64,000 nucleotides of DNA, taken from the IMG/VR virus record IMGVR_UViG_3300050821_002957, positions 271,192-335,191 of that record; one strand, 5' to 3'. Below are positions 4,957 to 29,618 of this stretch, in pieces; position 1 is the first letter of the stretch, and every line of letters begins with the position of its first letter. The notes under the pieces are model-generated. The model was not told the origin of the DNA, did not search any database, and worked only from the letters and a program-made list of their open reading frames with translations. Made by a program: the position numbers and the translations under genes. The stretch is from a virus.

Positions 4957-5725
4957 TTTGCTTGGAGACCTTATAAATAGATGCGTGACCTATTGTATCT
5001 ACTCCATCACAAACAATTTGAACAGAAAACGTTATATAGGATTTACTGGTAACTTTCGTGTTCGGAAGAATAAACACAAAGACTTGTCTCGACGAGGAAG
5101 CCTTCAGGCAATTCATCATGCTATCCGCAAATACGGTTGGGAAAATTTTTCATGGGAAATTCTCTTTGAATCTAGCGACCGTGAACAGACTCTTAATGTA
5201 AAAGAGCCGGAATTCATAAAGCTCTATCAGACACAAAATCCCAAATATGGATACAACCAAACTGCTGGTGGCGAACACTATGTTTTGTCAGAAGAAGCTC
5301 GTCACAAAATTTCTCTCTCGAAACTAGGAAAGAAGAGACCGCCCCATGTTATTGAAGCTCTGCGACGTGCAAACTTCGGAACCAAACAAAGTGAAGAACG
5401 TAAAGCTAGACAAAGTGAATTACTAAGACACCGTTATGACCACAAGCCAAATCCAATGAAGGGTCGCAAACTGACCGAGCCGCACAAACAAAAACTCAGG
5501 GCAGTACATCCACACTTACCACACACCAAAACATCCAAAGCAAAAATTGCAGAAAAGAACAGCCGCCACTGGACCGTTGTCTTCCCGGATGGGCACCAAG
5601 AACAAATCGTGAACATGGCAAAGTTTTGTAGAGAGCACAATCTCCACCAGTCAAATATGTCAGAGACTCAATCGAATGGGAAGACTTACAAAGGATTTAA
5701 ATGTTGCCGATCCGAAATAACTTAA
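4957..5725 (+). CDS. GIY-YIG homing endonuclease
   Basis: The motifs CIYSITNNLNRKRYIGFTGNFRVR...YGYNQTAGGE are present, with a basic C-terminal DNA-binding region. Confidence 0.75.
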
Positions 5726-6819
5726 GCCTGCTTGCGTCTCGTGCGCTTAACCACTGGAGCCGTCTCTTCGACTTGAGTTCCATCATGATCAGGTAGAAGA
5801 ATCTCGTCACCTTCTTCAGGCGCTTCGATTTCCCATTCAATTTTTCCTTCGACCGCTTTGCAATAGACATACGATCCAGGAGAAATTTTGCCGTCAATAA
5901 AGTCGTCTGCGAGAGGATTGAGAAGGAATCGGTTGATTACTCGCTTTAACTCTCGTGCGCCATACTGAATGCTCGTGCCGGTTTTAGTGAGCAACTCAAG
6001 AGATGGTTCATCATAGTTCATGAAGAAGCCTTTGTTTCCGAGGCGTTCCATAATCTGCGTCTGAATCTTGTTGAGTTCTAGAGTTGTAATCTTTTTTAAC
6101 ATGTCAGGACTTAGCGGTTTGTATGTGACCACTTCATCGACACGATTTGGAAACTCAGGTGGAAATTTGCGTGCTAATGCTCCAAGACCAATTCTCTGAA
6201 TAGCAGCAAAATTATGATCGCTGAATGCATCAGTAGTAATCGGACCTTGAAGTTTGTTGAAACCGAAGCCGCCTGTGAACATTTCCGACATTTCTTTTGC
6301 GCCAAGGTTAGAAGACATGAAAATAACTGTCTTCTGAAAATCTGCGCTGGTATTGTCTCCCAGGCGAAGGGTTGCTTTATCGAGAATACCGAGTAATACT
6401 CTCCAGAGAGACGCACTACCCTTTTCAATTTCGTCGAAGAGAATAATTGAAATAGGAGATTTTTCAGTAGCTACAGCATTGATCTTGGCCTGCGAAAACA
6501 CCGGATGTGTTTCACGATGTCCCAAGTAACCAGGAGGAGCACCGATCAGCTTCGCAACTTCATGTTCCATCTGAAATTCGCCACAATCGATTCTTAGTAC
6601 ATTTTTGTCTGTACCGTGAAGAACTTCTGAAAGTGTCTCAGCAGTTCTGGTCTTACCTGTTCCCGTAGGTCCCATCAAGAAGAAGACACCGACCGGGCGA
6701 CCTGGAGCATTCAATCCAGCCATCGCACGCACAATGTACGGGATGATCTTGTCGATTGCATGATCCTGTCCAACGATCAACTTCTTCCACGCTTCGGCCA
6801 GTTCTTGTGATTTCATCAT
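5722..6819 (-). CDS. Clp/Hsp100-family AAA+ ATPase, single D2-type module (ClpA/ClpB/ClpC C-terminal-like)
   Basis: It carries VGQDHAI...FFLMGPTGTGKTRTAETL (Walker A), ILFDEIEKG (Walker B), a sensor region and a C-terminal small domain. The N-domain and D1 module are absent. Confidence 0.7.
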   Translation of the reverse strand: MMKSQELAEAWKKLIVGQDHAIDKIIPYIVRAMAGLNAPGRPVGVFFLMGPTGTGKTRTAETLSEVLHGTDKNVLRIDCGEFQMEHEVAKLIGAPPGYLGHRETHPVFSQAKINAVATEKSPISIILFDEIEKGSASLWRVLLGILDKATLRLGDNTSADFQKTVIFMSSNLGAKEMSEMFTGGFGFNKLQGPITTDAFSDHNFAAIQRIGLGALARKFPPEFPNRVDEVVTYKPLSPDMLKKITTLELNKIQTQIMERLGNKGFFMNYDEPSLELLTKTGTSIQYGARELKRVINRFLLNPLADDFIDGKISPGSYVYCKAVEGKIEWEIEAPEEGDEILLPDHDGTQVEETAPVVKRTRRKQA

Positions 6820-6855
6820 TCCCTAATTGCCTCGCTTGGATACTGCTGCTACTAC

Positions 6856-7134
6856 TTACAAATTCAACTTGTTCAACATATGTTTGAGTCGATCTGCATC
6901 TTTAGCTTGCATGATGAAACAATCGAAGTGACCATAACGACACTTGTACCCAAACACATATTTCACAGCCACCCACATCCGTTGGAAAAAGTTACGATAA
7001 TGTTGCAGGAACACTTCCGTGTATATGCTATTATCTTCGTCATCCCAAGCAAACCGCAGCGTGTGTTCTGACGAGTGACAAGCACAGTCAAAATATTGCG
7101 GCTCAAATGGCTCAATCATTGGTATCATCTTCAT
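6856..7134 (-). CDS. hypothetical Cys/His-rich small protein
   Basis: 92-aa ORF lying between the Clp ATPase and the sHsp gene. Confidence 0.3.
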   Translation of the reverse strand: MKMIPMIEPFEPQYFDCACHSSEHTLRFAWDDEDNSIYTEVFLQHYRNFFQRMWVAVKYVFGYKCRYGHFDCFIMQAKDADRLKHMLNKLNL

Positions 7135-7217
7135 CGGTATTTAGGGAATCCTTGTATGCCAAAAGAAAAGCCGGAACCTTTCGGCCCCGGCTCTCTTGTT
7201 TGTGAACTATATGACAA

Positions 7218-7751
7218 CTACTTAATCTCGAAAGTGGTTCGAGTTTTTTCTTCTGTTGGTTTTGGCTTTGAAACCACAACCGTCAGAACGCCGTTTTCAG
7301 ACGACACTGATTCGACAATCGCATTTGGTTGAAGGTCAAACGTGCGAACCCAAGCAGCCTTTGAAATTCCTTGGTGGCGATGAACTTCACCTACACCAGG
7401 AGCATTCGTAGACTTGGATGGATGAACGGCATCAGGTGCTTTCAATCCACGAACGATAAGAACATTGCCTTCTTTTTCGACTACAAGTTGACTCTTACTG
7501 TATCCGGCAGCAGCGAGTTCAAGACGAACTTTGCCATCAGCTTGCTCAATAATGTCATAAGGAGGGAAATTTCTTGCGCCGTTGGTAGTGGATGTTAACG
7601 TCACAAAGGGGAAATCGGGGTGCTCGATCAAACTCCAAAAGTCTGACACAACGCCTCGTCCTGACTCAAAAAGACCGAATAGGTCGTCTTTGGATGTACC
7701 AATTGAATACTTCATTTTATTCTCCTGTCTCCTCAATGTAGAGCGAGACAC
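7218..7751 (-). CDS. small heat-shock protein (Hsp20/alpha-crystallin family)
   Basis: Alpha-crystallin-domain-like segments are present (LELAAAGYSKSQLVVEKEGNVLIVRG ... ENGVLTVVVSKPKP). Confidence 0.65.
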   Translation of the reverse strand: MSRSTLRRQENKMKYSIGTSKDDLFGLFESGRGVVSDFWSLIEHPDFPFVTLTSTTNGARNFPPYDIIEQADGKVRLELAAAGYSKSQLVVEKEGNVLIVRGLKAPDAVHPSKSTNAPGVGEVHRHQGISKAAWVRTFDLQPNAIVESVSSENGVLTVVVSKPKPTEEKTRTTFEIK

Positions 7752-7796
7752 TGTTTGTTATAAAGAACCTCAGTTGAGAGCGTTCCTACTCAAGGC

Positions 7797-7804
7797 TATT
7801 TATA
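7797..7804 (-). promoter_or_regulatory. T4-type late-promoter motif TATAAATA
   Basis: An exact TATAAATA on the minus strand lies about 46 nt upstream of the sHsp start. A gp55 late sigma factor is encoded in the same window. Confidence 0.35.
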
Positions 7805-7807
7805 CAG

Positions 7808-8410
7808 CTAATTTGTCCCAGTCGAACCAAATCCACCAATACGATCTGTCTTCTGTGTCGGTTTCGTAGCGGTCTCTTCGACAACATAAGCCATGTCTGG
7901 GATCATCTCTGCTTGTGCAATGCGGTCACCATGAACAACGATAGCAATTTCAGTCGAATCATTCCTGAGTACAACAAAAGTAGGATCGACGTAATCTGCA
8001 TCGACAACACCTTCGTGATTCGCCAGGACCAAACCTTGCTTCAAAGCCAAGCCAGAACGACTGTGAAGACGGACGCTGTAGCCAACTGGAATATCAAAGA
8101 TCAAATTAGTCGGAACCATTACACGAGATCCCGGCTTGATAAAAATACAATTTTGTTCTGTGACTGCTGTCTGAGTTACTTCGACCAAAGTCTTCTTATT
8201 GTCAACATTGTAAGACCAGACTTGTACTCCCAGATCCAGGCAAGCTCGAAGATCAAAGCAGGCTGCATGTTGTGTTCCCCATTGTGGATCAAATGCTGTC
8301 GGAGTGAGCTTATAAAACTTGAGAGGAGGAGCGTCGGGTTGTGTTAATTCCTGATTAAACGGATCAGTAAGTGTAAGTGGTTGCGGTACGAATTTCATAT
8401 TCAATTCCAT
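7808..8410 (-). CDS. dut: dUTPase / dCTP-deaminase-family protein
   Basis: It contains a dUTPase motif-3-like segment (RLHSRSGLALKQGLVLANHEGVVDADYV). Confidence 0.65.
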   Translation of the reverse strand: MELNMKFVPQPLTLTDPFNQELTQPDAPPLKFYKLTPTAFDPQWGTQHAACFDLRACLDLGVQVWSYNVDNKKTLVEVTQTAVTEQNCIFIKPGSRVMVPTNLIFDIPVGYSVRLHSRSGLALKQGLVLANHEGVVDADYVDPTFVVLRNDSTEIAIVVHGDRIAQAEMIPDMAYVVEETATKPTQKTDRIGGFGSTGTN

Positions 8411-8438
8411 TTCATCATGGAATCAAATTCTGTCAAGT

Positions 8439-9215
8439 TTAGTGGGCGCTGTTGATCAGAACACCAATAGGATTGAGGCTTCGGTAAATCGTAGCGCCAG
8501 TCACAGCATAAGTCAGGATTCGGTCGTACCATTTTGGTTTTGTCAGCCGGTCAATGTTCATAGTGATAGAATCGATGTTTGCAGTGATAGGAGGAATAGA
8601 TGTAGCTAAAGTTCCTGAAACCATTGCAACATTCGTCGAGACGGTTCCAATATTTGCTTCGATCTTGGGAAGAGTTTCTGATAGACCGGCCATTGTGGTG
8701 CTGGTTGAGCGGCTCGCATCACGAATTGCAAACATGGTGTCACTAGCTTGGCCTTGAAGACATAGAGAGTTCTGTTTGCAGTTAAAATATAGATCAAAAT
8801 TCTTGTTGTACTGAGCAGCTACATCGGTCGGCACATTGGCATAAGCTGTAACCAAAGTGTTGATCGATTTGTTGGTCTCGCTTAGTTGAGTATTCAAATT
8901 TTTGTTAGCTTCGGCAAGTTGTGTGTTCACTGCCGAGACAAGACCTGACTGAACCAATGCAAGGCGATTATCACTCTTGTCGGCGACTGTATTGACTTCG
9001 GCGGTCAGCTTATCTTGGACTGTATCTATTTTGGCAAGCAATTTATCCTGGACAGTATCGATCTTAGTGAGTACTTTGTCAGGAAGGTTTTTGGCTGTAG
9101 TCTGGACTTCGAGCGTGGTCACAGTGAGTTGATGAAGAAAGAGACAAAGAAAAGCTGCGACGGGAACAACAGAAAGAAGAGCCAAGAGTTTTGCAAGTTT
9201 GATTAGACGATCCAT
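8439..9215 (-). CDS. membrane-anchored coiled-coil protein with internal tandem repeats
   Basis: An N-terminal TM helix is followed by the repeats KIDTVQDKLLAKIDTVQDKLTAEVNTVADK. The underlying 33-bp DNA repeat is visible at 8990-9070. Confidence 0.4.
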   Translation of the reverse strand: MDRLIKLAKLLALLSVVPVAAFLCLFLHQLTVTTLEVQTTAKNLPDKVLTKIDTVQDKLLAKIDTVQDKLTAEVNTVADKSDNRLALVQSGLVSAVNTQLAEANKNLNTQLSETNKSINTLVTAYANVPTDVAAQYNKNFDLYFNCKQNSLCLQGQASDTMFAIRDASRSTSTTMAGLSETLPKIEANIGTVSTNVAMVSGTLATSIPPITANIDSITMNIDRLTKPKWYDRILTYAVTGATIYRSLNPIGVLINSAH

Positions 9216-9691
9216 TGTTTGATACCCGAAAGAAAGGCTTCCTGTGTAACTTCAGATACCACTACTTGACCTTTGACAAATAACATGATTGTCGGGACGG
9301 CTCTGATAGAATACTTCATCGCAAGGTCTGCATTAGTATCTACGTCAACCCTAAGAAATGTTAACTCTGGGTCTTTAGAAAGCGCAGTGATGCCGGGAGC
9401 GTACAAACTAAAATTGAGAGCAATTGCACTGGAAGCTACATTGCTCTTTTGACTCCACAGGACAATGACACTCGTTTTATTTTGAAGGATCGCATCAAAG
9501 ACGGCGGCAATAGTGATATCTGTCATCATGTCCCTATTTAGCTTGACTTTACAGTCATCCTTAAGTATACTGTTTGCACTATGGCTACCAGTAAAGATAA
9601 CACTTTTGTCTGTAGTTTCTGCGATCCCCCAAGAAAATGTGTCAACGCTCAAGGTCTCGCAGCCCATCAACGGTCGGCACACCCAGATCAA
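9203..9691 (-). CDS. thioredoxin-fold protein lacking the CxxC active site
   Basis: The C-terminus is Trx-like (VPTIMLFVKGQVV...FLSGIKQWI). The position corresponding to WCGPC reads WSQKS. The real start is probably the internal MMTD near 9529. Confidence 0.4.
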   Translation of the reverse strand: MIWVCRPLMGCETLSVDTFSWGIAETTDKSVIFTGSHSANSILKDDCKVKLNRDMMTDITIAAVFDAILQNKTSVIVLWSQKSNVASSAIALNFSLYAPGITALSKDPELTFLRVDVDTNADLAMKYSIRAVPTIMLFVKGQVVVSEVTQEAFLSGIKQWIV

Positions 9692-9841
9692 GTCAAATCA
9701 AAATCAACACCTAAAAAGACGCATCACAAAACATATCACAAAAAATCATCAGAGATCTCATTGGCCGATGCGATCAATGCGTTGGAAATCAAACGAGACG
9801 CTTTGGATGAAGTCATTAAAAATTTGAAGGAGATGTTATGA
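9581..9841 (+). CDS. small basic protein with a C2H2-type zinc finger
   Basis: The finger FVCSFC...HQRSAH (C-x2-C...H-x3-H) is followed by a K/H-rich tail. Confidence 0.35.
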   Translation: MATSKDNTFVCSFCDPPRKCVNAQGLAAHQRSAHPDQVKSKSTPKKTHHKTYHKKSSEISLADAINALEIKRDALDEVIKNLKEML

Positions 9842-10140
9842 AACCATTGAGCAGGCGACAAGTCAGTACACTACGCCATTTAAAGATTCATGGAAGCGTC
9901 AGCATAGAGAGCTTGCGGTCCTTCCACCAGGGAACAATCTGGAGCCTTATGTACAAAGGACTCGTAGTCAAATTTGGAGGATCAGATGTAGGATTATCTA
10001 CGGCAGGCGAGGCAGTCCTTCGTGACTACAATTCGACGGCCCCGAGCTATCGCAAACATGATGCCGAATTGACCGACCGAGTTCAACGTCTTCTCGTGCG
10101 AGTGAAAATTCTTCAGATGCGAAAATCTGCGGCAGCTTGA
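9838..10140 (+). CDS. hypothetical protein
   Basis: 100-aa ORF whose start ATGA overlaps the upstream stop codon. Confidence 0.3.
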   Translation: MKPLSRRQVSTLRHLKIHGSVSIESLRSFHQGTIWSLMYKGLVVKFGGSDVGLSTAGEAVLRDYNSTAPSYRKHDAELTDRVQRLLVRVKILQMRKSAAA

Positions 10141-10168
10141 CATTTAGATGCATCTAGTGCTATGCTGG
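10139..10168 (+). promoter_or_regulatory. sigma70-like promoter with the perfect palindrome TAGATGCATCTA in the spacer
   Basis: It reads TTGACA-tttagatgcatctagtgc-TATGCT, immediately upstream of the ATG at 10173. Confidence 0.45.
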
Positions 10169-10172
10169 GTGC

Positions 10173-10361
10173 ATGTCTAATCCTCGTTACAGAATTAGTG
10201 GTGAACACATCGTGGACAATACCACGAACCACATTGTCATGACCCTCTCGTTGCCAAAATGGGAGGCTACGCTTTCATTCGAGTGCAAGGTTCTCAATGG
10301 TGAACTGGTCCCGAAATGGGTGGACGACGTTCTCATTTGGTTACCGCCTGCCGTTTCTTGA
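10173..10361 (+). CDS. small hypothetical protein
   Basis: 62-aa ORF downstream of the promoter at 10139. Confidence 0.3.
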   Translation: MSNPRYRISGEHIVDNTTNHIVMTLSLPKWEATLSFECKVLNGELVPKWVDDVLIWLPPAVS

Positions 10362-10471
10362 CAAGATCGCCAGACGTGGTACAGTTGAGAGGAATTGAAA
10401 CCGTCTCTACATTCTCCTGTGGAGGCTTCTTAGGTGCTGCGGAAGGAAATACCGCAGCACCATTTTTGTTT

Positions 10472-11722
10472 CTAGAGACGCCCGGAACGGATCAGTTCGA
10501 GGGCCTGTTCTTTCGATTTGATGTGACCGGCAAGCTGCCCATTCTCGGCGGCGTCCAGGATTCGTTTGAAATCTGGTCCTGGCTTCATTCCAAGTGCCTT
10601 CAGATCATCCCCATTGACAAATTTTGCCGGATTCAAGTCTTCGGCCTTCATGTTGGCAAACATTTTTGACAACATCTGGAAAGCAGCGATATGGACGTGC
10701 TTGTCCTGAGCCTCTGTACGGCATCCATAGAGCTTCAAGGCGTCGGGGAACAGCTTCTCACGCATCAGGCGTTTCAACACGTCCAGCGTCGTTCCAGCCG
10801 TCACAGAACCGATTCTGGACTGAAGGTCGATGATGCCGGTAATCTGCTTGATCGTGTCGTTAAAAAACTTCAGACGTTTACCAATTTTTTCTGCGCTCCC
10901 TGAAGGCAACATGTACAACGCACCAGCCAAACCCAATGCTGGATTGATGTTGGTGCCGATGAACGAAAGTGTTGCCATCATCTGAGCGTAATCATACGGA
11001 GTCATGTGGGCAACTTCCGGCAGAACATGCTCTAAGATGCCGGTGTTGTTCATTCCCTTGATTGTCTTGTGAGCGTCATGACCCATTGCCTTGGTCAATT
11101 CCTCTGTTATGCGCTCTACGTCCATTTTCGCAATGTTCGGAGCGTGCGCCTGCATTGCCGCCAGTGTCTCTGGGTGGATCTCAAATCCGAGCTTCGCCTG
11201 AAAACGATGTGCCCGAAGCATCCGAAGATGATCCTGTGTAAAACGGTCGTTCGGATTGCCGACACATTTGATGAGGCCGTTTTTTGCATCGGCCTTGCCA
11301 CCATGAAAATCGATGATGTCACCAGTGAACGGGTCCATGTACATTGCATTGACGGTGAAGTCACGCCGGTTGGAATCTTGTTGTTGATCACGAGTGTATT
11401 CGACATCATCTGGACGCCGACCATCAGTGTACTTTCCATCTTTGCGGAATGTGGCAATGTCGATACCGTGGCAGACAACGACACCAAATGATTTTCCTAC
11501 GACACTTGTTCCTGGGAAAAGTTTGAGAACTTCTTCAGGTGTGGCGTCAGTTGCTACGTCAAAATCTTTTGGCTTGTGGCCGGTCAAAAAATCACGAACA
11601 CAACCGCCAGCGAGATAGCCGACAAAGCCGTGTCTGCGAAGCGTAGTGATTACGTCTTTGGCGTCGTCAAGCGTGCCATAGGTGGACTCCCGAAGGAGGG
11701 CGAATTGTGTAAATGAGAGCAC
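10472..11722 (-). CDS. cca: tRNA nucleotidyltransferase (CCA-adding enzyme)
   Basis: The pol-beta head motif of the CCA/poly(A) polymerase family is present (GYLAGGCVRDFLTGHKPKDFDVATDATPEEV). Length is 416 aa. Confidence 0.8.
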   Translation of the reverse strand: MLSFTQFALLRESTYGTLDDAKDVITTLRRHGFVGYLAGGCVRDFLTGHKPKDFDVATDATPEEVLKLFPGTSVVGKSFGVVVCHGIDIATFRKDGKYTDGRRPDDVEYTRDQQQDSNRRDFTVNAMYMDPFTGDIIDFHGGKADAKNGLIKCVGNPNDRFTQDHLRMLRAHRFQAKLGFEIHPETLAAMQAHAPNIAKMDVERITEELTKAMGHDAHKTIKGMNNTGILEHVLPEVAHMTPYDYAQMMATLSFIGTNINPALGLAGALYMLPSGSAEKIGKRLKFFNDTIKQITGIIDLQSRIGSVTAGTTLDVLKRLMREKLFPDALKLYGCRTEAQDKHVHIAAFQMLSKMFANMKAEDLNPAKFVNGDDLKALGMKPGPDFKRILDAAENGQLAGHIKSKEQALELIRSGRL

Positions 11723-11901
11723 CGTATATTTAGTCCTTTAATATGAACATCCAGAGATTGTGATTTTGTTTTTCCTGTCGATCTCTTGACCATCGTTGAA
11801 CCAGCTTACCGACCAATCCGTAGACCACCAGGACAAAGCCGATGATCATTACGTTATTGATGCCGTACTGATTCAAAGCAAACATCACTTAGCCGATCCA
11901 A

Positions 11902-12219
11902 TCATTTTTTGTGCTCCCAGTGAATCACTACGGTTGCGTACATTCCACCGCCATCGTGCGACTCCCGAACACCATATCCAAGCGGTGTCAGCATTGAAGC
12001 TACTTTTGCGACAAATTTTGATGCCGGGTAATAATCAACCCGAAACGAAGCAGCGCCGCTCGACGTGTACTTGACCGGATTGTCAATCATGTCCTCGATC
12101 TTTGGTGCAACGACATTATTGATAAAATTGGTGACCTCGGTCTCAACTTCCTCAGCGTGCTTAATCTCGGCGGCGGCGACGTATTCAGCAGCAGTTTTGA
12201 TGGTCAATCCGTTGTTCAT
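11902..12219 (-). CDS. hypothetical protein
   Basis: The ORF starts at MNNGLTIK. A TTGACA-N18-TATTCT promoter with the AGATGTATCTA palindrome lies at 12226-12255. Confidence 0.35.
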   Translation of the reverse strand: MNNGLTIKTAAEYVAAAEIKHAEEVETEVTNFINNVVAPKIEDMIDNPVKYTSSGAASFRVDYYPASKFVAKVASMLTPLGYGVRESHDGGGMYATVVIHWEHKK

Positions 12220-12261
12220 GAATAAAGAATAGCATGAAGATGTATCTAATGTCAAGGCCCC

Positions 12262-12642
12262 TTAATCCGGCATCGTCATGATGTTCTTTTGATGCGGACG
12301 GGTCATGAAATTTCCATTGCCATCGGGATTCATTTTTGGTTGTGCAGCGTAGCAATAATCAAACGTGACGACTCGACCCGGCTGTTCGTTTTCTGAAGAA
12401 GGATCGGCCCATTCGTCGCCAGCCCAATTGCCACTTGTAATGTGAATTTCGTGAGTGTGTCCGACAGCACCGGGCATTTTGCTGATCGCTTGTCCATAAA
12501 CAGTGTCAGGAGTTCCACGACCACCTTCATGGCGACGACCCATCACAACGTTGTCGTAAGGATTGACATTGCCAGAAGGACCAGACATTGTACGGTTGTA
12601 CATCTGGTTTTGCATAGCGGCAAATTGGGAGAAACTCAACAT
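12262..12642 (-). CDS. hypothetical protein
   Basis: 126-aa ORF. Confidence 0.35.
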   Translation of the reverse strand: MLSFSQFAAMQNQMYNRTMSGPSGNVNPYDNVVMGRRHEGGRGTPDTVYGQAISKMPGAVGHTHEIHITSGNWAGDEWADPSSENEQPGRVVTFDYCYAAQPKMNPDGNGNFMTRPHQKNIMTMPD

Positions 12643-20520: not shown

Positions 20521-21456
20521 TTACACCACCAAATCTTTGGGCAAGCGTTCAGTCCGTGCAATCTCTTCTGCGGTCGGTTTGATCACATTGCCGACGATTC
20601 CACCGAAGATTGCTCCGACCGTATCTGTGTCGCCACCGACCTCAATGAAGCTGTTGATGCAGGATGCGAACGAAAGACCTTTTTCCAAAGCCTGATGTGC
20701 CTGCCATAATGCAAAAGGAACTGTATCGACTGCCGTTACTTCTTTGCCGTTTCCAACCTTGCCAATTATTCCCCAATTGGTTTCGTTAAATGCACCCTCA
20801 CTGGCGACCCATTCGATGCGATCACGAAGTTCCCCTGATGGTGTGTATTTGATGATGTTTAACCAGAAGTCTTCCTCAGGTCTTCCATAAGTTACGTTTG
20901 CTGCGGCTATGGCGACCGCTATCGAACCGGCAATAGCATCGACGTGATAATGGGTCACTTCGGCAGATAGACGTGCTTCTTGCGCTACAAGGCCATAGTC
21001 AGGTCCAAAGTGTGCGCCAATGACAGCATCACGCATTGCCGATCCGTTGCCTTTTGAGCCGATGCCCGGTCCCCACCAATTCTTGCTATGCTCAAGCCAA
21101 TTGTCGGAGTCATAGCTATAGGTCGTCAACAAACCACGAGTGCCACGCCCATAACCACGCTGAGGATCAACATGAAAATTACGAGCTAATTCCTGAGCGA
21201 GTTCGAGTTGATTGATCGTATTGAATCGGTACAAAGTTCTAACGACACCAATACCGACATGTGTGTCGTCTGTCCAGGGATAGAGAATGTCAATTTTTGT
21301 GATCCCTCGTTCAGTGGCGACATTCCCAGCCTTGTAATATTCAGCCGGAAGAATCTTCATCTGATTTTCGCCTGCTGCATCGCCTACCGACAAGGCAAGA
21401 AGCGAAAGATAAGTTTCTTTCTTTTTGTACTGCATCGGAGCAAGACAGGGTGTCAT
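20521..21456 (-). CDS. ADP-ribosylglycohydrolase (ARH/DraG family)
   Basis: Several ARH motifs are present: LSVGDAAGE, PWTDDTHVG, GNGSAMR and GGDTDTVGAIFGGIVG. Confidence 0.8.
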   Translation of the reverse strand: MTPCLAPMQYKKKETYLSLLALSVGDAAGENQMKILPAEYYKAGNVATERGITKIDILYPWTDDTHVGIGVVRTLYRFNTINQLELAQELARNFHVDPQRGYGRGTRGLLTTYSYDSDNWLEHSKNWWGPGIGSKGNGSAMRDAVIGAHFGPDYGLVAQEARLSAEVTHYHVDAIAGSIAVAIAAANVTYGRPEEDFWLNIIKYTPSGELRDRIEWVASEGAFNETNWGIIGKVGNGKEVTAVDTVPFALWQAHQALEKGLSFASCINSFIEVGGDTDTVGAIFGGIVGNVIKPTAEEIARTERLPKDLVV

Positions 21457-21463
21457 ATTTCAC

Positions 21464-22175: not shown

Positions 22176-22191
22176 GTGATGAGGAAGATTA

Positions 22192-22267
22192 TGGCCGCTG
22201 GTTCCAGTTACGCTCTGGACTCTTCTGTTCTTCAGACAGACGCTTTCACTAGATTAGCTTACCAGCG
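22192..22267 (-). tRNA. tRNA-Phe-like (anticodon loop CTGAAGA) with a non-canonical T-loop
   Basis: Acceptor CGCTGGT/ACCAGCG, then G and CCA. The anticodon arm is TCTGT-CTGAAGA-ACAGA. The T-arm is TCCAG-AGCGTAA-CTGGA and lacks the TTC motif. Confidence 0.45.
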
Positions 22268-22288
22268 GTGTTGTGCTTTGAGAGAGGC

Positions 22289-22327
22289 GCAACGACTGCT
22301 GGTTTCAACAGCAGTCGTTGCGCCCCG
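22289..22327. other. perfect 16-bp inverted repeat (hairpin with a 7-nt loop)
   Basis: It reads GGCGCAACGACTGCTG-gtttcaa-CAGCAGTCGTTGCGCC. It lies between the conserved TATAAATA 28-mer and the tRNA-Phe-like gene. Confidence 0.7.
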
Positions 22328-22369
22328 GTGGTAAATCGCCAATATGTAAAAGTGCGTGTCATCGTAATT

Positions 22370-22377
22370 CTATTTAT
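22370..22377 (-). promoter_or_regulatory. TATAAATA late-promoter-like motif (second copy of the conserved 28-mer)
   Basis: GTCATCGTAATTCTATTTATACCACGAT lies upstream of the tRNA-Phe-like and tRNA-Trp genes. Confidence 0.35.
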
Positions 22378-22553
22378 ACCACGATCATTGCTGTCTGTCA
22401 ACAATGAAATTCTGTGTCGTGAACAAATGGTTCCTCGGATGGGAGCGGTATCATAGGCAGTGATAATCCCACCTGATTCCCCGGCTCACGACAAAATAAC
22501 AAGGCCACTCGGAAGTAGCCAAGATCCCTTGGTACACATGGTAACAGGGTCTA

Positions 22554-22793
22554 CTATTCGTGAATGATTTCGCCTATCACTCGTTCTGGCATTAGCTTCT
22601 CAGGCGGGACACTTCCATTCATAAGGTCAACCATGCGCTGTGCTTGAGCTAGAGTGTGAAAGGTTCCATACGGTGTGACATGTGCTCCACCGTCGCCAGA
22701 ACCTACTTCAACCAAATCATACTTCGTTTCCGTCTTCGGCCAAATCTCGTACCTAATTTTCTGTTCGGTCGATGACTTGTTGACGAATTCCAT
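22554..22793 (-). CDS. small hypothetical protein
   Basis: 79-aa ORF. Confidence 0.3.
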   Translation of the reverse strand: MEFVNKSSTEQKIRYEIWPKTETKYDLVEVGSGDGGAHVTPYGTFHTLAQAQRMVDLMNGSVPPEKLMPERVIGEIIHE

Positions 22794-23735
22794 AAATGTG
22801 TGTCGGTGTTAAGGCACACCGAGCAGGCCGCAAGATTTTGTTACTGATCAATACCTGCTAAGAACCAGGATGTTTAAGAACTTATCCTTGAGAAAGCTCC
22901 GTTGTAGGCGACACGGCTTCCCTGAGAGTCAGAGTTACTTCAGCTACTCCTGATGGTATGGTGACTCAGCTACCCCGACTTTTTAGTGATCGGCTCCATT
23001 CCGGTATTCGATTCGGCAACGACAGATTCCGACTCTGCAACGTTCTGCTTCTTTTCGATGAGAAGCAAAAATCATAAAAACTCAAAATGACCAGAGGACC
23101 CTCAGCAGTGAGCGCAGATCCCACGTTCGCATACAAGCGTCAATGACAAGTTTTATCCAACGAGCCATTGTCTTGTACGTTGGCTCACCGTCGAGTGCGC
23201 TATCCAGTTCGACACACTCACCTGCGGTTCTAATGACTTTCGTCTCCCGCTGGCCCTATCATCGCCTCACACTTCCGTGTGTTTCAACATCCTGGTCATC
23301 TCAAGGGCGACAGCCTTGCGGCCACGACACCCCACCAGCTTTTTTACTGTGTACTGATCACAGGGAGAGCTAGAACGACTTTCGCCGCCCCACACCTACC
23401 GCCACTGGTCGAGACTTCTACATGCGACCAGCCATGTCGCTAAAAGGGGCACTACGAGTAGATGCCCTCCACCACGTTGTTCTTTTACGTCCAACAACGA
23501 AACGACTTAGACCCATAACTCTGACCGGAAATCAGAACTATGATCCACACTCCCCGGTGGAAGCCGGGAAGACTTTGAATGTGAACTAATAATTGACAAG
23601 GGATTATAGCCCCGAAGGACCATTTCACCATTTGAAAGATAACCCTCATCTTCCGGCTCACATCACGAAATACGGCTGCTTGTCCTACCATTAGACGACC
23701 GGATCTGCCGACGCTTTACGCCATGAGAGCAGATT

Positions 23736-24060
23736 GGACTCCGACCGGGACTCGAACCCGGATTTCTCAGCTAGACGAATGACGGAGCATAGTGCGCTCT
23801 ACGTCGGAATTGGTGGATACACATGGGAATTGAACCCATAACCTTCTCGGTGCAAGCGAGTTGCTCTCCCAATTGAGCTAGTGACCCATAACTTTGTACC
23901 TCGAACAAATAAGTATCAGAGGGCTTGTCATTAGGAAAGATAACCCTCTAAATCCGGCTCGAAGCACTACAAAACTTTTGGTGGATCGCCAGGGATTTGA
24001 ACCCTGCTGTTATCCTCGGTGCAAGCGAGGCAAACACCCCAAGCATTTCCGCAACCCACA
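23736..24060 (-). pseudogene. three degenerate tRNA-like elements (tRNA pseudogenes or fragments)
   Basis: One element has a T-arm CCGGG-TTCGAGT-CCCGG with the D-arm GAGC/GCTC but an unfoldable anticodon region. A second has an Ala-like loop CTTGCAC with an acceptor of only 5 of 7 pairs. A third has a clean 3' half (anticodon arm, T-arm, GCGATCC-A-CCA) with no matching 5' acceptor strand. Confidence 0.35.
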
Positions 24061-24278
24061 TTTAAATAGCACGAACAAATAGCGGTAGAAGACTGATAGG
24101 AGACTGCATTTAACGCACCCTCGGATTGGATACCGATCAGATACGCTTCAAACTCCCCTCCTCAAAGTTACGGGCGTCTTTTACTACACGTACAACGAAC
24201 TGCTTTGTGCCCACCAAATACTGCCGGTGAACTTTGTCATGGTTAGGTAACCTTCCAACCAGCGGCTCGTGCTATGTC

Positions 24279-24340
24279 GAAACAGAACGAAACAGAACGA
24301 AACAGAACGAAACAGTGCTCAACGATGCGAAACAGTGCGT
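24279..24340. repeat. 10-bp tandem repeat (CGAAACAGAA)x3 followed by two CGAAACAGTG units
   Basis: Directly visible as cgaaacagaacgaaacagaacgaaacagaacgaaacagtgctcaacgatgcgaaacagtgcg. Confidence 0.8.
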
Positions 24341-24421
24341 TAGGTCAAAGATCGTATTCTTTATCTATACACGCTACAGTTTGCTTTCAATAGCGCCTTT
24401 GACTCTTTCAGTCTAACATCC

Positions 24422-24691
24422 TTAGTATGGGATGTCAAGTGCCACGAACATAATAATTTCATCTTCGTCTTTTTTGCGACGAGCAGCAGCTTCTTTCTCA
24501 GTCAACACCAGAGGAGACGGATTGCCTTCGACTTTGATATTCACTGATAAACCTTGCTGGAGCCATCCAGATACTTCATCGGGCGGCGTCTCGACAAATG
24601 CCTGATCACACGCCTTCTGAATTTCGACATTGCGTATTGCAGCAAGCGGTTTGCCGGATGGCGTCATGATGTCTACGTTACAAAGAAGCAT
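24422..24691 (-). CDS. hypothetical protein
   Basis: 89-aa ORF. Confidence 0.3.
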   Translation of the reverse strand: MLLCNVDIMTPSGKPLAAIRNVEIQKACDQAFVETPPDEVSGWLQQGLSVNIKVEGNPSPLVLTEKEAAARRKKDEDEIIMFVALDIPY

Positions 24692-24693
24692 GT

Positions 24694-25023
24694 TTATCTA
24701 CCAACTGCTACGGCTGAAATTCCGATAACACTTTCAATATTGTACAACAGACGAGCGGCTTCTGACAATTCTGAGCCGGTGCGATCCAGTGTAGCATGGA
24801 CGCCGGTCGGATCAGAATCAGCTTTTGAGTCATCGTCTTCTCCGGTGTATTGAAGAACATCTAACACCGTTTTTAAGCGACGAGCCAACATCCTAGCCAA
24901 TTGCAAATTTGCATCCGAAGAAGATTGAATTGTCGTTGGTTCGTGGTTCTTTTCTGCTGGACCGTCAACAACTAATCCAAACTTCTCTAATAAAACTTTG
25001 TTTCCTTTCTTTCCTGTATTCAT
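24694..25023 (-). CDS. hypothetical protein
   Basis: ORF trimmed to the internal Met (MNTGKKGNK) so that it does not overlap tRNA-Ile. Confidence 0.3.
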   Translation of the reverse strand: MNTGKKGNKVLLEKFGLVVDGPAEKNHEPTTIQSSSDANLQLARMLARRLKTVLDVLQYTGEDDDSKADSDPTGVHATLDRTGSELSEAARLLYNIESVIGISAVAVGR

Positions 25024-25029
25024 AATTTT

Positions 25030-25105
25030 TGGTTGGCCCAGATGGAATCGAACCATCAACCTCAGAATTATCAGTTCTGCGCTCTACCAATTGAGCTATG
25101 GGCCA
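25030..25105 (-). tRNA. tRNA-Ile (anticodon GAT), CCA encoded
   Basis: Hand fold: acceptor TGGCCCA/TGGGCCA, D-arm GCTC-AATTGGTA-GAGC, anticodon arm CAGAA-CTGATAA-TTCTG, T-arm GATGG-TTCGATT-CCATC, discriminator A, CCA. Confidence 0.7.
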
Positions 25106-25190
25106 ACATACTCAGAAGTAGTTATACTAGCGGCGAATCATTAGTGGAGGCCCAATAATCCGCCGCCAGTTTTACAGAATCAACCAAAAA

Positions 25191-26984
25191 CTACTCTTCG
25201 GTCTCTTCTGCGATCCCAGCACTTGAACCACGAATAAAATCCGTAACCAATGCTGGAACATTCGAGTCGAACCCAACGATGTCCAAAGAATACGGGTCCT
25301 TCGGATCTGCGATGGTAAATTGCGTAGAAACCATTCCCATCACGATCAGGCGCACATCATCCTGCCCACGATGCTTACGATACTGCTTGAGAGCCTGCGA
25401 CGGTTGCATTTGTCCAGCCCAAGTCTCATTATCCGTGATCACCATGAAAGCGTCTGCGTCGATGCCAGCCTTTTGAGCGTGAAGCATCGGTGCAGCACAA
25501 TCGGTTCCACCAGCCGACATGCGAGAGGTCTTTGCCAACGCAGTCTTCAGAGTGTCCTTTGCGGTGATGCCAATTTCCTGCATTCCCGTAGAAAATGCAT
25601 AGATAGCGTAATTCGGTTCCGTGCGAGCCACAACCATCGCCATTGCTGCGCCTGCTTGTGCTGCCGTGATTCCGGTGCCTTGGATGATGCTGGACGCCCA
25701 CGACATAGAACCAGAAACGTCCATGCCAATGTACGTAGCCTTACCAGTCGGAATTGCGTTTGCGAATGCCAAGTAGAACGTGTTCTCTAAAGCGTCCACA
25801 ATGGTCGGTACAACGGTCCAGGTCGCATCGCTGCGCTGACCGTGGCCTTGGCCGTAGGTGCCTTGTGCCAACAATACCTGGAGCGGGTGAATCTTGCTCT
25901 TCTTGACGTAGGCTTCATCGTTCAAACGAGACACGACGAGCTTCGATGCTGCCGACAGCGGCTTCAAGAGACCAATCTTCGACATGGTTCCAAGATTACG
26001 AACCATTGCAGTTACCGGCATCTTCTGAAGCAGAGCTTCCCAGACTTCCGGTTGCGTCTTAAACTGCGTCGGAATCATTTCGTGAGTCAATCCACCGTCG
26101 ATGATGCACTTTACGATAGTGCTCGTATCCGTCGCCTTCTTTGCGGTTTCATAGGCGGTGATCAACTTCGGTGCGTTCGATCCGGTCAACAAATCATAAG
26201 CGTTCTGATAGCGAGCACGCTGATTCTGAATTTCCGCAGAAGTCAGATCAGTCGTGCGATGGCTGTTGCCCTGCCACTTCTTGACAGAACGAGTCCAGTT
26301 CTGAGCAGCTTCGTTCAAGGCATCGAGACCACCGAAACGACCCCAAGCCAGCAAAGCACTCTTCATCGGATCAGTCGCCTTGACGTGTGCGAGGCTGACG
26401 AGATCACGAGTGGACCAGCCATCACGCTGTTGATACTTCGCCAACTGATAAGCCAGCGAATCTTCCGTGCGTTCGGTGTACCAGTTGCCGATTGCAGTCT
26501 TTACACCACGACCGTATCCACGCATGGAATCGAGGTACTCGTTGAAGTGGAACATGTGAGTACCGATACGTGCAACCTTGCTCAATTGCGACAGAGCATA
26601 AGCAGCAGTTTCAGCCGAACCAAAATTCGGTGTTGCGGCAACTGCCAGGGCAAACAATGCCGGATCGTTCTTCGGAGCACGGCCTGCTTGCGAAATGTTG
26701 ACGATCATATCGACCGTGCGCTTTCCATCCAACTGCAAGCACGCACGAACGTTCGCTGCGTTGTCTACAGTCATCTTCTTGGCAGATGCATAGTACGTCG
26801 GCGCATCGCTACCGAGAATCAAAAATCGTTCGAGCATCTGGAAGGGAGTGATGGTGAAGGTGTATCCACCAGCGTTGTTCTGCTTCATCTCTGCTTCCCG
26901 GCCCGGAATTGCCTGCGACTGTGATGTCTTCTTGCCGCTTAATACCGTTGCGTAATTGCTCTTTGCTGATCCTGCCTTTGCCAT
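25191..26984 (-). CDS. rsr: Ro60/Rsr orthologue (TROVE domain plus C-terminal vWA domain)
   Basis: The TROVE-like N-region (GGYTFTITPFQMLERFLILGSDAPTYY) is followed by the vWA MIDAS motif YIGMDVSGSM. A GGAGA SD sits 7 nt upstream of the ATG at 26984. The longer ORF start in the track is probably not used. Confidence 0.75.
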   Translation of the reverse strand: MAKAGSAKSNYATVLSGKKTSQSQAIPGREAEMKQNNAGGYTFTITPFQMLERFLILGSDAPTYYASAKKMTVDNAANVRACLQLDGKRTVDMIVNISQAGRAPKNDPALFALAVAATPNFGSAETAAYALSQLSKVARIGTHMFHFNEYLDSMRGYGRGVKTAIGNWYTERTEDSLAYQLAKYQQRDGWSTRDLVSLAHVKATDPMKSALLAWGRFGGLDALNEAAQNWTRSVKKWQGNSHRTTDLTSAEIQNQRARYQNAYDLLTGSNAPKLITAYETAKKATDTSTIVKCIIDGGLTHEMIPTQFKTQPEVWEALLQKMPVTAMVRNLGTMSKIGLLKPLSAASKLVVSRLNDEAYVKKSKIHPLQVLLAQGTYGQGHGQRSDATWTVVPTIVDALENTFYLAFANAIPTGKATYIGMDVSGSMSWASSIIQGTGITAAQAGAAMAMVVARTEPNYAIYAFSTGMQEIGITAKDTLKTALAKTSRMSAGGTDCAAPMLHAQKAGIDADAFMVITDNETWAGQMQPSQALKQYRKHRGQDDVRLIVMGMVSTQFTIADPKDPYSLDIVGFDSNVPALVTDFIRGSSAGIAEETEE

Positions 26985-27059
26985 ATCATTATCTCCTATG
27001 ATACCTAATTTTTTCGACTTCACCAGAATAACACATGCCTGATTGTTGTCAAGCATGTA

Positions 27060-27398
27060 TTATCCAATATCACCTGCTCCATCTTTGTGACGTAAGATCA
27101 CTTCTTCAGCGATCATGTACGCCAAGACTGCAAGCTGTTCGTAATACTTCATGGTCATATCGATGATTTCGTCGATCTGACTACGTGTTGCGATGATACG
27201 AACCGGAATCATTCGTTCCTCAAACAGCGTCTCTTTAAAAATCCACTGTCCTTTCGCAACCGGCATGATCGTCAAACCACCAGAAATTGTACGCACCTTT
27301 TCATCCCAGATTTTGTGGAATCTGGTTCTGATCGGACGACCGTCATTCCGCATTGTCGGAACGAGAATCTCCCACATCGATTTTTTGGTGCTATTCAC
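27060..27398 (-). CDS. hypothetical protein, probably translationally coupled to rsr
   Basis: 112-aa ORF ending about 75 nt upstream of the rsr start. Confidence 0.35.
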   Translation of the reverse strand: MNSTKKSMWEILVPTMRNDGRPIRTRFHKIWDEKVRTISGGLTIMPVAKGQWIFKETLFEERMIPVRIIATRSQIDEIIDMTMKYYEQLAVLAYMIAEEVILRHKDGAGDIG

Positions 27399-27429
27399 AC
27401 ACCCACCATAACATGTAGATGTGTCTTTG

Positions 27430-27681
27430 TCAAACTACCAATTCAAATTGTTCGAGGTCCCCGGTCACATAGCTGCCCGTTTCAAGTTGAGCCGTCCAGT
27501 GATCAGGATGAAGTACGTATGATTCGGAAGTTGGATTCCAAATTTTATACCGCTCAGTTACCACGCCTGCGATTATATAGGCACACTGAAAATTACAGCC
27601 AGGACAACGTTCGGTTTTGGTTCCATCCCAGCCGCCATGATAGAGGATCTTGACGCCGGGTTTCATTTGGTCGAGGATCAT
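27430..27681 (-). CDS. hypothetical protein
   Basis: 83-aa ORF. Confidence 0.3.
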   Translation of the reverse strand: MILDQMKPGVKILYHGGWDGTKTERCPGCNFQCAYIIAGVVTERYKIWNPTSESYVLHPDHWTAQLETGSYVTGDLEQFELVV

Positions 27682-27709
27682 GAAATACTCACACTATCGG
27701 CTAACACCA

Positions 27710-27910
27710 TCAATTCTCATGAGTTTGCCTCTTAATGTCCGGTGCTATCAGTTCTATGAGCTTGTCCAGTTGAGGCCGAATGGTGTCTAGGTCAACTTTC
27801 GTGTAACCCTTTTGCATCATTGCGTCTACCATTTCATATGCCGTAGTTGTGATCTCGTACAATTCTTCTGTCAGATCGCTTTGGTAGACGTACTCGCCCC
27901 AATCTCTCAT
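27710..27910 (-). CDS. small hypothetical protein
   Basis: 66-aa ORF overlapping the upstream stop by 4 nt. Confidence 0.3.
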   Translation of the reverse strand: MRDWGEYVYQSDLTEELYEITTTAYEMVDAMMQKGYTKVDLDTIRPQLDKLIELIAPDIKRQTHEN

Positions 27911-29016
27911 CTGATTTCCCCACCAATCTCTGCAACCAGTTTACGAATTGCATCGCCCTCAGGACCGGCCCAACGGCGCTTCAGGTCTTCGTCAACATCT
28001 TTGGACTTATTACGCCAGTCGTCAATCGCTAATTTTTGTTTTTTAAGAAACGGATTGCCCTTTTTGATTTGTTCCGAAAGACCATCCCAGTCAATCAGGC
28101 CACCGCCGTTGATGTCAAAACTTACTTCAATTGCAATTTTGAAGCGACCATCGGTGTCATCAAGGTATTCTGTGTCGATAGCATCTTTTAGAGATAAGTG
28201 TGTCGGAAGAGAAATGTATCCAAACCGTTCTTCACGAACAATGATGCCTTCGTCAATTCGACTAATATTGAAATACTGGATTTTCCAGCTTGTATCGTCG
28301 CCCCAATAACAACCAGCGACAAATGCGTGCTTCGGAGGAAGAATTACACTCCCATAAGCATAGTCTTTTTTTGGTCCCCAGACCCATCGATATTCATCAC
28401 GTTCGTATGAAGTTCCAGCGTCGTTTATTTTGCCGGTGTACGCCCGGACTCTGGTTCCGTCTTCGTAATAGATGATTTTCCGACCAGACATTTTTGAACT
28501 AATGTCACCGATACGAGCACCTGGAGGAAATTTTTCGAGTAAGTTCTTCCAATCATTCTCCGAATAATCGTCTTCGCTAACATGCTGCCGAATCGTAGGA
28601 ATGTACAACTCGACTGGACAAAACCCATCACTGTCTTTTTCTTCCCCGCCGATGTCTTTGATGCCGACACCAGGAGTGATTTCTAAGACACGAGTGCCGG
28701 TATAGTGTGGAGAGTAGAGAGCATAATACTTGTCGCCTTTCCGAGTGACCGCAAAGGTTTCAGAGAAAGCATGATAGTTGCGTATGTACTCACCGATCAG
28801 ATAAGGATCTTGTCCTTGTGCGTCCTGTTGAAAGACCCCGATCTTCTGATAAGACCAACAGCCTTTACCTTTGTCGATTTGGTCGATTACTTTAGCCGTA
28901 AAGGATGGATATTCTTTTAAATACCCATCCTCATCTTGCGGAGCCACAGGCGTAGGAATCTGAACGGTGACCGAAGGGATCACCGTGTTCGATTTTCTAT
29001 TGAAAGACCAGAACAT
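27907..29016 (-). CDS. hypothetical protein (369 aa)
   Basis: Clean ORF between clpP and the rsr operon with no recognisable motif. Confidence 0.4.
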   Translation of the reverse strand: MFWSFNRKSNTVIPSVTVQIPTPVAPQDEDGYLKEYPSFTAKVIDQIDKGKGCWSYQKIGVFQQDAQGQDPYLIGEYIRNYHAFSETFAVTRKGDKYYALYSPHYTGTRVLEITPGVGIKDIGGEEKDSDGFCPVELYIPTIRQHVSEDDYSENDWKNLLEKFPPGARIGDISSKMSGRKIIYYEDGTRVRAYTGKINDAGTSYERDEYRWVWGPKKDYAYGSVILPPKHAFVAGCYWGDDTSWKIQYFNISRIDEGIIVREERFGYISLPTHLSLKDAIDTEYLDDTDGRFKIAIEVSFDINGGGLIDWDGLSEQIKKGNPFLKKQKLAIDDWRNKSKDVDEDLKRRWAGPEGDAIRKLVAEIGGEIR

Positions 29017-29018
29017 TA

Positions 29019-29618
29019 CTACTCTTCTCTCGGACGAGGCTTGACGATCTTGTCGATGATGCCGTATGCCAGTGCTTCTTCGGCATCCATGATGTAGTCA
29101 CGCTCAAGATCCTTCTCGATGCGCTCAATCGGCTGACTTGTCAAATCAACCATCATGTTGACCAGACGCTTCTTGGTCTTTAAAATATGTTCGGCGTAGA
29201 TCGCAATGTCTGTAGCCTGTCCACCAAGACCGTACATCGACGGCTGGTGAATCATGACCTCAGCACCAGGAAGAGCAAACCGCTTGCCCTTGGTGCCACA
29301 CATCAAGATTGATGCACCCATCGAAGCTGCACGACCGACACAGGTAGTCTTGATATCGACACCGACGAGGTTCATGGTATCAATGATTGCCATGCCTGCG
29401 GAGATCGATCCACCCGGCGAATTGATGTAAATCTGAATGTCTTTCTCAGGATTTTCGGTCGAGAGATAAAGTAACTGTGCGACGACAGCGTTCGCAACAT
29501 AGTCATCAATCGGTGTTCCCAAGAAAATGATATTGTCTTTCAACAGACGTGAGTAAATATCATACGCACGTTCACCCTTGTGATCCGATTCGATTACGAT
29601 TGGAGTAAGCATTGACAT
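29019..29618 (-). CDS. clpP: ATP-dependent Clp protease proteolytic subunit ClpP
   Basis: It has the catalytic Ser context [11 protein letters not shown], the His context MIHQPS and the ClpP N-terminal region [13 protein letters not shown]. Confidence 0.85.

Follow-up and report, generated by a model that had tools for sequence, protein, structure and literature searches.

A 64,000-nt stretch of viral DNA (IMG/VR virus record IMGVR_UViG_3300050821_002957, positions 271,192 to 335,191; the whole of this stretch is referred to here as the window) encodes a Clp/Hsp100 ATPase made of a single AAA+ module and, some distance away, the proteolytic subunit ClpP. We consider it reasonably probable that these two proteins make up a minimal two-component Clp protease belonging to the phage. 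The proposal draws on the domain content of the two proteins, their intact catalytic and ATPase motifs, a candidate ClpP-docking tripeptide in the ATPase with its place in the fold-aligned loop and its conservation, the placement of the ATPase in a separate clade, and the co-occurrence of both genes in the closest relatives. The conserved tripeptide, the separate clade and the co-occurrence together make pairing of the ATPase with ClpP appear likely. An initial annotation of the window had combined these two genes with an Hsp20 gene at 7.2 kb and a C1 peptidase gene at 41.1 kb into one proteolysis toolkit, with which the phage might remodel host proteostasis or break down defence proteins. All four open reading frames (ORFs) are present where they had been placed, all on the minus strand, and their Pfam and PHROG E-values are far beyond chance. 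The ATPase and the parts of it that matter to the argument are as follows.

5722–6819, minus strand: single-module (D2-only) Clp/Hsp100 AAA+ ATPase of 365 amino acids, with the Pfam domains AAA_2 and ClpB_D2-small
6649–6672, minus strand: Walker A motif GPTGTGKT, residues 50–57, invariant in alignments A1 and A3
6517–6543, minus strand: pore-1 loop GAPPGYLGH with Tyr98, the substrate-translocating aromatic residue; G93, P95–Y98 and G100 are invariant
6259–6267, minus strand: F185-G186-F187, candidate ClpP-docking tripeptide recognized in alignments, within an 18-residue loop after the sensor-1 helix
5725–5799, minus strand: disordered C-terminal tail, residues 341–365, an acidic stretch followed by the basic KRTRRKQA (predicted local distance difference test score, pLDDT, below 50)

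The ATPase contains an AAA_2 domain (PF07724; 1e-32, 113.9 bits, cutoff 27) and a ClpB_D2-small domain (PF10431; 3e-14, 53.2 bits, cutoff 21.9). It aligned only to the second AAA+ module (D2) of its two-ring relatives, covering residues 558–851 of ClpB, 448–733 of ClpA, and positions 458–759 of the 764 in PHROG 4871. A tblastn search of the 64 kb with E. coli ClpA, ClpB, ClpX and ClpS detected no first AAA+ module (D1), N-domain, ClpX or ClpS. The alignment span and this search confirm the earlier description of the ATPase as a D2-only protein without N-domain and D1; because the protein begins at the D2 boundary, it also has no M-domain. The best solved relatives by sequence were the D2 modules of ClpB, ClpC and ClpA, with raw scores marginally highest to ClpB D2. 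Against the ClpB equivalog the ATPase scored 220.8, far under the cutoff of 1232.1, and against the ClpX models NF003745 and TIGR00382 it scored 30.2 bits (cutoff 359) and 18.6 (cutoff 370.75), respectively. As judged from its sequence scores, the ATPase is not a ClpX.

The motor motifs are intact, the Walker B pair D129–E130, sensor-1 N171, arginine finger R226 and sensor-2 R289 all being invariant and common to ClpA, ClpB and ClpC. The pore loop reads GYLG, which is typical of the single-ring family described below, whereas two-ring Hsp100s have GYVG. An AlphaFold2 model built with 30 homologues had a pLDDT of 83.9 and a predicted template modelling score of 0.80, low confidence being confined to the pore-loop region, residues 181–200 and the C-terminal tail. 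The best fold matches of this model were ClpC chains taken from ClpC-ClpP complexes and the isolated second nucleotide-binding domain (NBD2) of ClpB. The basic end of the tail is kept in phage homologues of the ATPase (VKRTRRKPS, KKRTRTKSV, VKRAKRSDT) and missing in bacterial ones; the tail may act as a degron, bind an adaptor or make contact with nucleic acid. In a PADLOC scan only the generic AAA core of the protein gave matches (PDC-M37B, DolB), and the ATPase therefore does not belong to any known defence system.

The initial annotation had called for alignment of the ATPase to its relatives in search of a ClpP-docking tripeptide, and had named lack of a docking loop together with clustering among ClpB-type disaggregases as the result that would speak against pairing. 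In a phmmer alignment the tripeptide loop shows up as 18 residues inserted with respect to E. coli ClpB, and we take this insertion to be the stretch that was swapped for the ClpA loop to make BAP, a ClpP-binding version of ClpB. When the ATPase was aligned by MAFFT with ClpA and ClpB of E. coli and with ClpC and ClpB of S. aureus (references drawn from genome records and identified by sequence), its GGFGF fell opposite the AGFGG docking loop of S. aureus ClpC, and both ClpB proteins were gapped at this point. Alignment to ClpA, ClpC and ClpB was thus positive, placing F185-G186-F187 at the position of the ClpC loop, and the ATPase itself fell into a clade of its own. The predicted tripeptide is of the docking type, fitting the pattern [LIVMF]-G-[FL] of the D2 loop in ClpA, ClpC and ClpE. 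The loop was modelled with a low pLDDT of 57–63, as expected for a flexible loop.

Conservation within the family singles out the tripeptide from its surroundings. In a family alignment of 30 sequences, G186 was present in all 30 and F187 in 29, and position 185 was occupied by Phe in 19, Leu in 4 and Ile in 3; the flanking loop positions were hypervariable, with 7–13 residue types and indels. Among the 120 best homologues, a hydrophobic-Gly-Phe/Met motif was found in all 117 that were scored automatically (FGF in 97), and of the 3 that the automatic scoring skipped, 2 had the motif on inspection and 1 gave no readable segment. The two-ring Hsp100s recovered in the same scans served as a control, the motif being present in 79 of them, including the ClpA/ClpC loops IGFG and YVGF, and absent in 30. 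All 16 motif-less two-ring proteins sampled for a phylogenetic tree grouped with the ClpB references from E. coli and S. aureus, which indicates that the motif at this loop position tracks the known division between Hsp100s that partner with ClpP and those that do not.

The relatives of the ATPase form a large set of stand-alone proteins of 320–420 amino acids. In a neighbour-joining tree of 74 D2 modules, computed without support values and so indicative only, all single-ring proteins fell into one clade apart from the ClpA-, ClpB- and ClpC-like groups, and the phage subclade to which the window belongs adjoined a subclade from Bryobacteraceae. A search of contigs representing one genome per species gave 23 best bacterial matches at 39–50% identity, 22 of them from Acidobacteriota (Bryobacteraceae, Terriglobia, Acidobacteriaceae, Pyrinomonadaceae and Solibacteraceae) and the other from a Vulcanimicrobiota genome; below these came ordinary two-ring ClpB and ClpC proteins at 33–38% identity. 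The single-ring proteins thus appear by sequence to be a clade common to uncultured jumbo phages and Acidobacteriota, and the link to this phylum provides a hint as to the host of an uncultured phage lineage. Some acidobacterial members, of about 480–510 amino acids, carry a C-terminal CheY receiver (P0075, P0081–P0084, P0111–P0115, L184, L185, L189), an architecture that suggests an unfoldase controlled by phosphorylation. None of the 50,697 deposited phage records contained a D2-only member of the family, and the highest identity among them, 36.6%, was to a contaminating S. aureus ClpB. NCBIfam has no model for the single-ring family, and the source records label its members only as 'AAA family ATPase' or 'ClpA'. 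Tentatively, the phage branch might correspond to one lineage of 340–405 kb jumbo phages related to the phage of the window. Two-ring ClpA-like proteins of about 750 amino acids with a conserved IGFG loop are encoded by dozens of the IMG/VR viral contigs L033–L097, so that Clp ATPases able to dock seem to be common among uncultured phages.

The second component of the proposed protease is encoded as follows.

29019–29618, minus strand: ClpP proteolytic subunit of 199 amino acids, without a propeptide (PF00574 at 3e-75)
29097–29324, minus strand: span of the catalytic-triad codons (Ser99 at 29322–29324, His124 at 29247–29249, Asp174 at 29097–29099)

The CLP_protease domain (PF00574) of ClpP scored 252.4 bits against a cutoff of 20.2. 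Ser99, His124 and Asp174 stand in invariant alignment columns with S97, H122 and D171 of E. coli ClpP (mature numbering), so that the intact Ser-His active site of the initial annotation extends to a complete triad. Aligned with E. coli ClpP the protein was 54% identical, and its identity to ClpP of Bryobacter aggregatus was 64–65%. It passed the NCBIfam ClpP subfamily model NF001368 (286.8, cutoff 249), fell slightly under the strict equivalog TIGR00493 (270.9, cutoff 308.6), and failed the ClpP-related head-maturation model NF045542 (77.7, cutoff 120). The sequence begins at the mature N-terminus and keeps the equivalents of the N-terminal gating residues E8, E14 and R15. Of the residues that line the hydrophobic pocket in E. 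coli ClpP, L48, Y62, F112 and L114 are kept; Y60, F82, I90 and M92 are replaced, and the same replacements occur in bona fide bacterial ClpPs. Taken together, the identity, model scores and triad point to a ClpP of the housekeeping type rather than a prohead protease.

We considered whether ClpP, the ATPase or both could instead serve virion morphogenesis, through processing of the prohead or scaffold or by moving proteins into the capsid. Most ClpP-like proteins in PHROG are listed as head maturation proteases, and phage ClpA and ClpX could act in assembly according to Iyer et al. (PMC7824862). This explanation is nevertheless improbable in our judgement, given that the phage ClpP is so similar to the E. 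coli enzyme, passes the ClpP subfamily cutoff and fails the head-maturation model, that it carries no scaffold or capsid fusion, and that its neighbours are a DarG-like macrodomain protein and a Ro60-type protein rather than head genes. On the model scores and this gene context, a role as prohead protease was rejected. An ORF of 369 amino acids at 27907–29016, which starts 2 nt past the ClpP stop codon, was also considered as a partner of ClpP; it had no family match and is missing downstream of ClpP in a sister phage of 370 kb, and the idea was rejected.

The window is phage DNA, as seen from a PHROG 350 tail protein (8e-85), a UvsW-type helicase, an SbcC-like ATPase and a GIY-YIG homing endonuclease; many of its small ORFs had no family match in Pfam and PHROG scans. 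The exact ATPase and ClpP sequences of the window are found on a contig of 405,631 bp, which is its source, and the phage, so far uncultured, counts as a jumbo phage at about 405 kb. Near-identity DNA searches with the ATPase and ClpP regions against deposited phages gave no match, indicating that the phage lacks a close sequenced relative among these. Contigs of 405,631, 370,131 and 34,028 bp each list an ATPase and a ClpP homologue. For the 370-kb relative, a single contig was confirmed to carry both genes, with a spacing of about 22 kb like that in the window. Scans for promoters and terminators gave counts not above those in shuffled sequence, and for this reason we claim no operon.

From these observations we infer the following mode of action, including hexamer formation, docking, proteolysis, the choice between phage and host ClpP, and all that concerns substrates. 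ClpP would form the usual barrel with Ser-His-Asp sites, and the 365-residue ATPase would assemble into one hexameric ring that corresponds to the D2 ring of ClpA or ClpC. The Tyr98 pore loops would grip the substrate as ATP is hydrolysed, and the F185-G186-F187 loops would insert into hydrophobic pockets on a ring of ClpP, either the phage's own or that of the host, such that the unfolded polypeptide could be threaded from the ATPase ring into the ClpP chamber. Candidates for substrate choice are the phage-specific C-terminal tail, adaptors, and clients held by the neighbouring small heat-shock protein.

Several points weigh against a two-component protease of this kind. A motif match is not in itself proof of docking, and among the single-ring loci that were fetched one (L024) lacks the motif and two (L003 and L020) have Pro-Gly-Phe. 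The co-occurrence rests on three closely related contigs, and the ATPase and ClpP genes, 22 kb apart, do not form an operon. The bacterial homologues were not beside clpP at the two loci that were read gene by gene, where the homologue comes after infA and a UDP-GlcNAc 2-epimerase gene, and no ClpP match lay within 8 kb of a bacterial homologue at any of 80 genome loci. No N-domain or known adaptor was found that would account for substrate recognition.

The genes next to the ATPase bear on an alternative in which it works without ClpP.

7218–7751, minus strand: Hsp20/alpha-crystallin small heat-shock protein (PF00011 at 2.4e-7, 31.2 bits, cutoff 20.8; PHROG 432 at 7.6e-23)
6856–7134, minus strand: ORF92, a small Cys/His-rich ORF of 92 amino acids between Hsp20 and the ATPase, whose membership of the system is doubtful

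The probable start of Hsp20 is the ATG at 7715, giving 165 amino acids, with a GAGGAG-like ribosome-binding site upstream. Relatives were found in 449 phage records, mostly those of T4-like cyanophages, and the protein is thus a common phage small heat-shock protein. Its gene lies upstream of the ATPase gene in the window, L016, L001 and L264, and the order dUTPase, Hsp20, (small ORF), ATPase is kept in relatives with 77%, 63% and 60% ATPase identity. This adjacency is kept only inside a long syntenic block of one phage lineage, which extends from the CCA enzyme past dUTPase, Hsp20 and the ATPase as far as ParB and gp53, and it is weak evidence for coupling. ORF92 was 72–79% identical at the same position in L016 and L001, being better conserved than the ATPase in L001 (79% compared with 63%), and weakly matched PHROG 12660, 'virion structural protein'. 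We considered ORF92 as an N-domain or adaptor acting in trans and rejected it, as homologues of 51–59% identity occur on phage contigs with no ATPase nearby.

The ATPase could accordingly be a stand-alone unfoldase or disaggregase that acts with the adjacent Hsp20 and independently of ClpP, leaving ClpP to work with ClpX, ClpA or ClpC of the host. Such a system would resemble ClpB with IbpA/B, or human CLPB/Skd3 with its single NBD2-type ring. The position of Hsp20 just upstream of the ATPase in four related phages is consistent with this arrangement, as are the slight lead of ClpB D2 in the raw sequence scores, the solution of ClpB NBD2 alone as a separate construct (4LJ4 and related entries), and the 22 kb that separate ClpP from the ATPase. 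What it leaves unexplained is the invariant Gly-Phe found in both phage and bacterial members within an otherwise hypervariable loop at the docking position. In addition, the ATPase has neither an M-domain for coupling to DnaK nor a substrate-binding N-domain, the Hsp20 adjacency is not independent evidence given the syntenic block, and no Hsp20 match was found near the bacterial homologues. We regard a ClpP-independent disaggregase as unlikely, although less so than a role in morphogenesis, and retain the pairing of ATPase and ClpP as the preferred interpretation.

The fourth gene of the initial annotation lies farther away.

41103–41930, minus strand: papain-family (C1) cysteine peptidase, xylellain-like (PF00112 at 2.6e-15, 57.6 bits, cutoff 20.7)

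Residues 22–273 of the C1 peptidase, including the N-terminal region, matched the cysteine protease of PDB entry 3OIS (E 1.4e-53), which we take to be xylellain of Xylella fastidiosa, and the catalytic residues Gln62, Cys68, His214 and Asn240 are intact. Phage relatives were found in 3 records only (H61–H63), these being an uncultured phage of 595 kb, the Burkholderia jumbo phage FLC9 and Alicyclobacillus phage MMB025, the last of which has its relative annotated as an endolysin. The gene is separated from ClpP by 11.5 kb and from the ATPase by 34 kb, and no linkage to Clp genes was detectable. The notion of a single four-gene toolkit found no support, the C1 peptidase being distant and unlinked and Hsp20 being a common small heat-shock protein adjacent to the ATPase only within a syntenic block. 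Both are best treated as independent auxiliary genes.

A more sceptical explanation would extend this conclusion to all four genes, making them unrelated auxiliary genes that by chance share 36 kb of a very large genome in which such genes abound. They are scattered and form no conserved operon, neither ORF92 nor the ORF downstream of ClpP shows a consistent link to Clp genes, and the window also holds tyrosyl-tRNA synthetase, CCA-adding enzyme, Ro60, macrodomain and other cellular-type genes. This explanation holds for the C1 peptidase and probably also fits Hsp20. In the case of the ATPase and ClpP, the conserved docking motif and the joint presence of both genes in the closest relatives argue that the two are a functional pair. 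We thus assign little probability to the absence of any functional system. Were the pairing false, the region would simply hold an ordinary set of auxiliary genes, of types recorded before in jumbo phages.

The surroundings of the two Clp genes include several other genes with recognizable products. About 650 nt upstream of ClpP, at 30261–30797 on the minus strand, lies the macrodomain gene, the product of which matched the PADLOC DarG model (E 4.3e-58); a DarG-like macrodomain suggests reversal of DarT-type DNA ADP-ribosylation as a form of counter-defence. L014 and L265 both keep the block macrodomain, ORF135, ClpP. An ADP-ribosylglycohydrolase (20521–21456, minus strand; PF03747 at 6.8e-36) is also found in the sister phage L014, and with the macrodomain protein it gives two ADP-ribose-removing enzymes within 10 kb. 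The Ro60-type protein (25191–27056, minus strand; TROVE at 2.9e-40 and Ro60 vWA at 2.2e-57) is kept near ClpP in L014 and L015. As a phage homologue of Ro/Rsr it implies a function in RNA quality control, and a Y-RNA is possibly encoded nearby. A GIY-YIG/NUMOD3 homing-endonuclease-like gene (4958–5725, plus strand) runs towards the ATPase gene, and the two overlap by 4 nt at the ATPase stop codon; for the 370-kb sister phage no gene is on record at the corresponding place just downstream of the ATPase. Among cellular-type genes for RNA and translation, the window also encodes a CCA-adding enzyme (10472–11722, minus strand; PolyA_pol at 2e-32), an HD_4 domain protein (42311–42892, minus strand), and a tyrosyl-tRNA synthetase (39533–40681, minus strand), the last identified through the Pfam-annotated syntenic gene of L014 (tRNA-synt_1b and S4).

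Jumbo phages are already known to carry ClpP, ClpA-like and ClpX-like ATPases, ClpS and Hsp20, with degradation of host proteins or assembly as their proposed roles (PMC7824862, PMC6102473, PMC12484599, PMC11748809). Since phage ClpP and Clp ATPases have been described, the general idea of a phage Clp system is known. The new element, as defined by sequence comparison, is a family of single-ring Hsp100 D2 proteins that keeps the docking tripeptide. A literature search gave no earlier account of a D2-only Hsp100 that has a docking loop, the nearest case being the split plastid ClpC of Nannochloropsis, in which the D2 piece has lost the loop (PMC3999925). It is conceivable, though on balance doubtful, that the D2-only hydrophobic-Gly-Phe proteins as a whole represent an unrecognized class of minimal one-ring Hsp100s that activate ClpP and stand apart from both ClpX and the two-ring ClpA, ClpC and ClpE, and that they would give the phage an autonomous protease against host or defence proteins. 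If the pairing is correct, some jumbo phages would come with an entire protease and need not borrow ClpXP or ClpAP from the host, and the question is raised of whether its targets are the host proteome, defence proteins or the phage's own misfolded virion proteins. The pair would also offer a simple system in which to ask how much of ClpA or ClpC unfolding and ClpP activation require.

Of the known systems, ClpA-ClpP and ClpC-ClpP have in ClpA and ClpC an unfoldase with which the phage ATPase shares the D2 fold, the motor motifs and a hydrophobic-Gly-Phe tripeptide after the sensor-1 helix. The phage ATPase differs from them in lacking the N-domain, D1 and M-domain, which would leave one ring in place of two, in being only 30–33% identical to their D2 modules and belonging to a separate clade, and in having a GYLG rather than GYVG pore loop followed by a 7-residue insertion. 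The ClpA-type proteins annotated in Rak2-like phages, Atu_ph07 and XaC1 are 28–32% identical to the window ATPase; that of XaC1, read gene by gene, is a two-ring protein of 774 amino acids, and PHROG 4871 is 764 positions long. ClpX, the classical single-ring partner of ClpP, is similar in having one AAA+ ring and an X-Gly-Phe docking loop (IGF in ClpX), but it belongs to another AAA+ family and has a zinc-binding N-domain that the phage ATPase lacks. Phage G carries both ClpX and ClpP (PMC12484599). Human CLPB/Skd3 demonstrates that an Hsp100 with only a D2-type ring can work, and it matched the ATPase among PDB sequences at E values of about 1e-27 to 1e-30; it differs in having an ankyrin substrate-binding domain. 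Skd3 is not known to have a ClpP-docking loop and acts as a disaggregase. Natural ClpB/Hsp104 differs in being gapped at the FGF loop and in having an N-domain, D1 and M-domain. In BAP, a ClpB engineered to carry the ClpA docking loop, a ClpB-type D2 ring was turned into a partner for ClpP, and PDB entries 4D2Q and 4D2X were among the fold matches of the phage ATPase. The phage ATPase looks like a natural D2-only analogue of BAP, and if it does pair with ClpP it would be the natural counterpart of that engineered protein and the smallest Hsp100-derived ClpP partner known.

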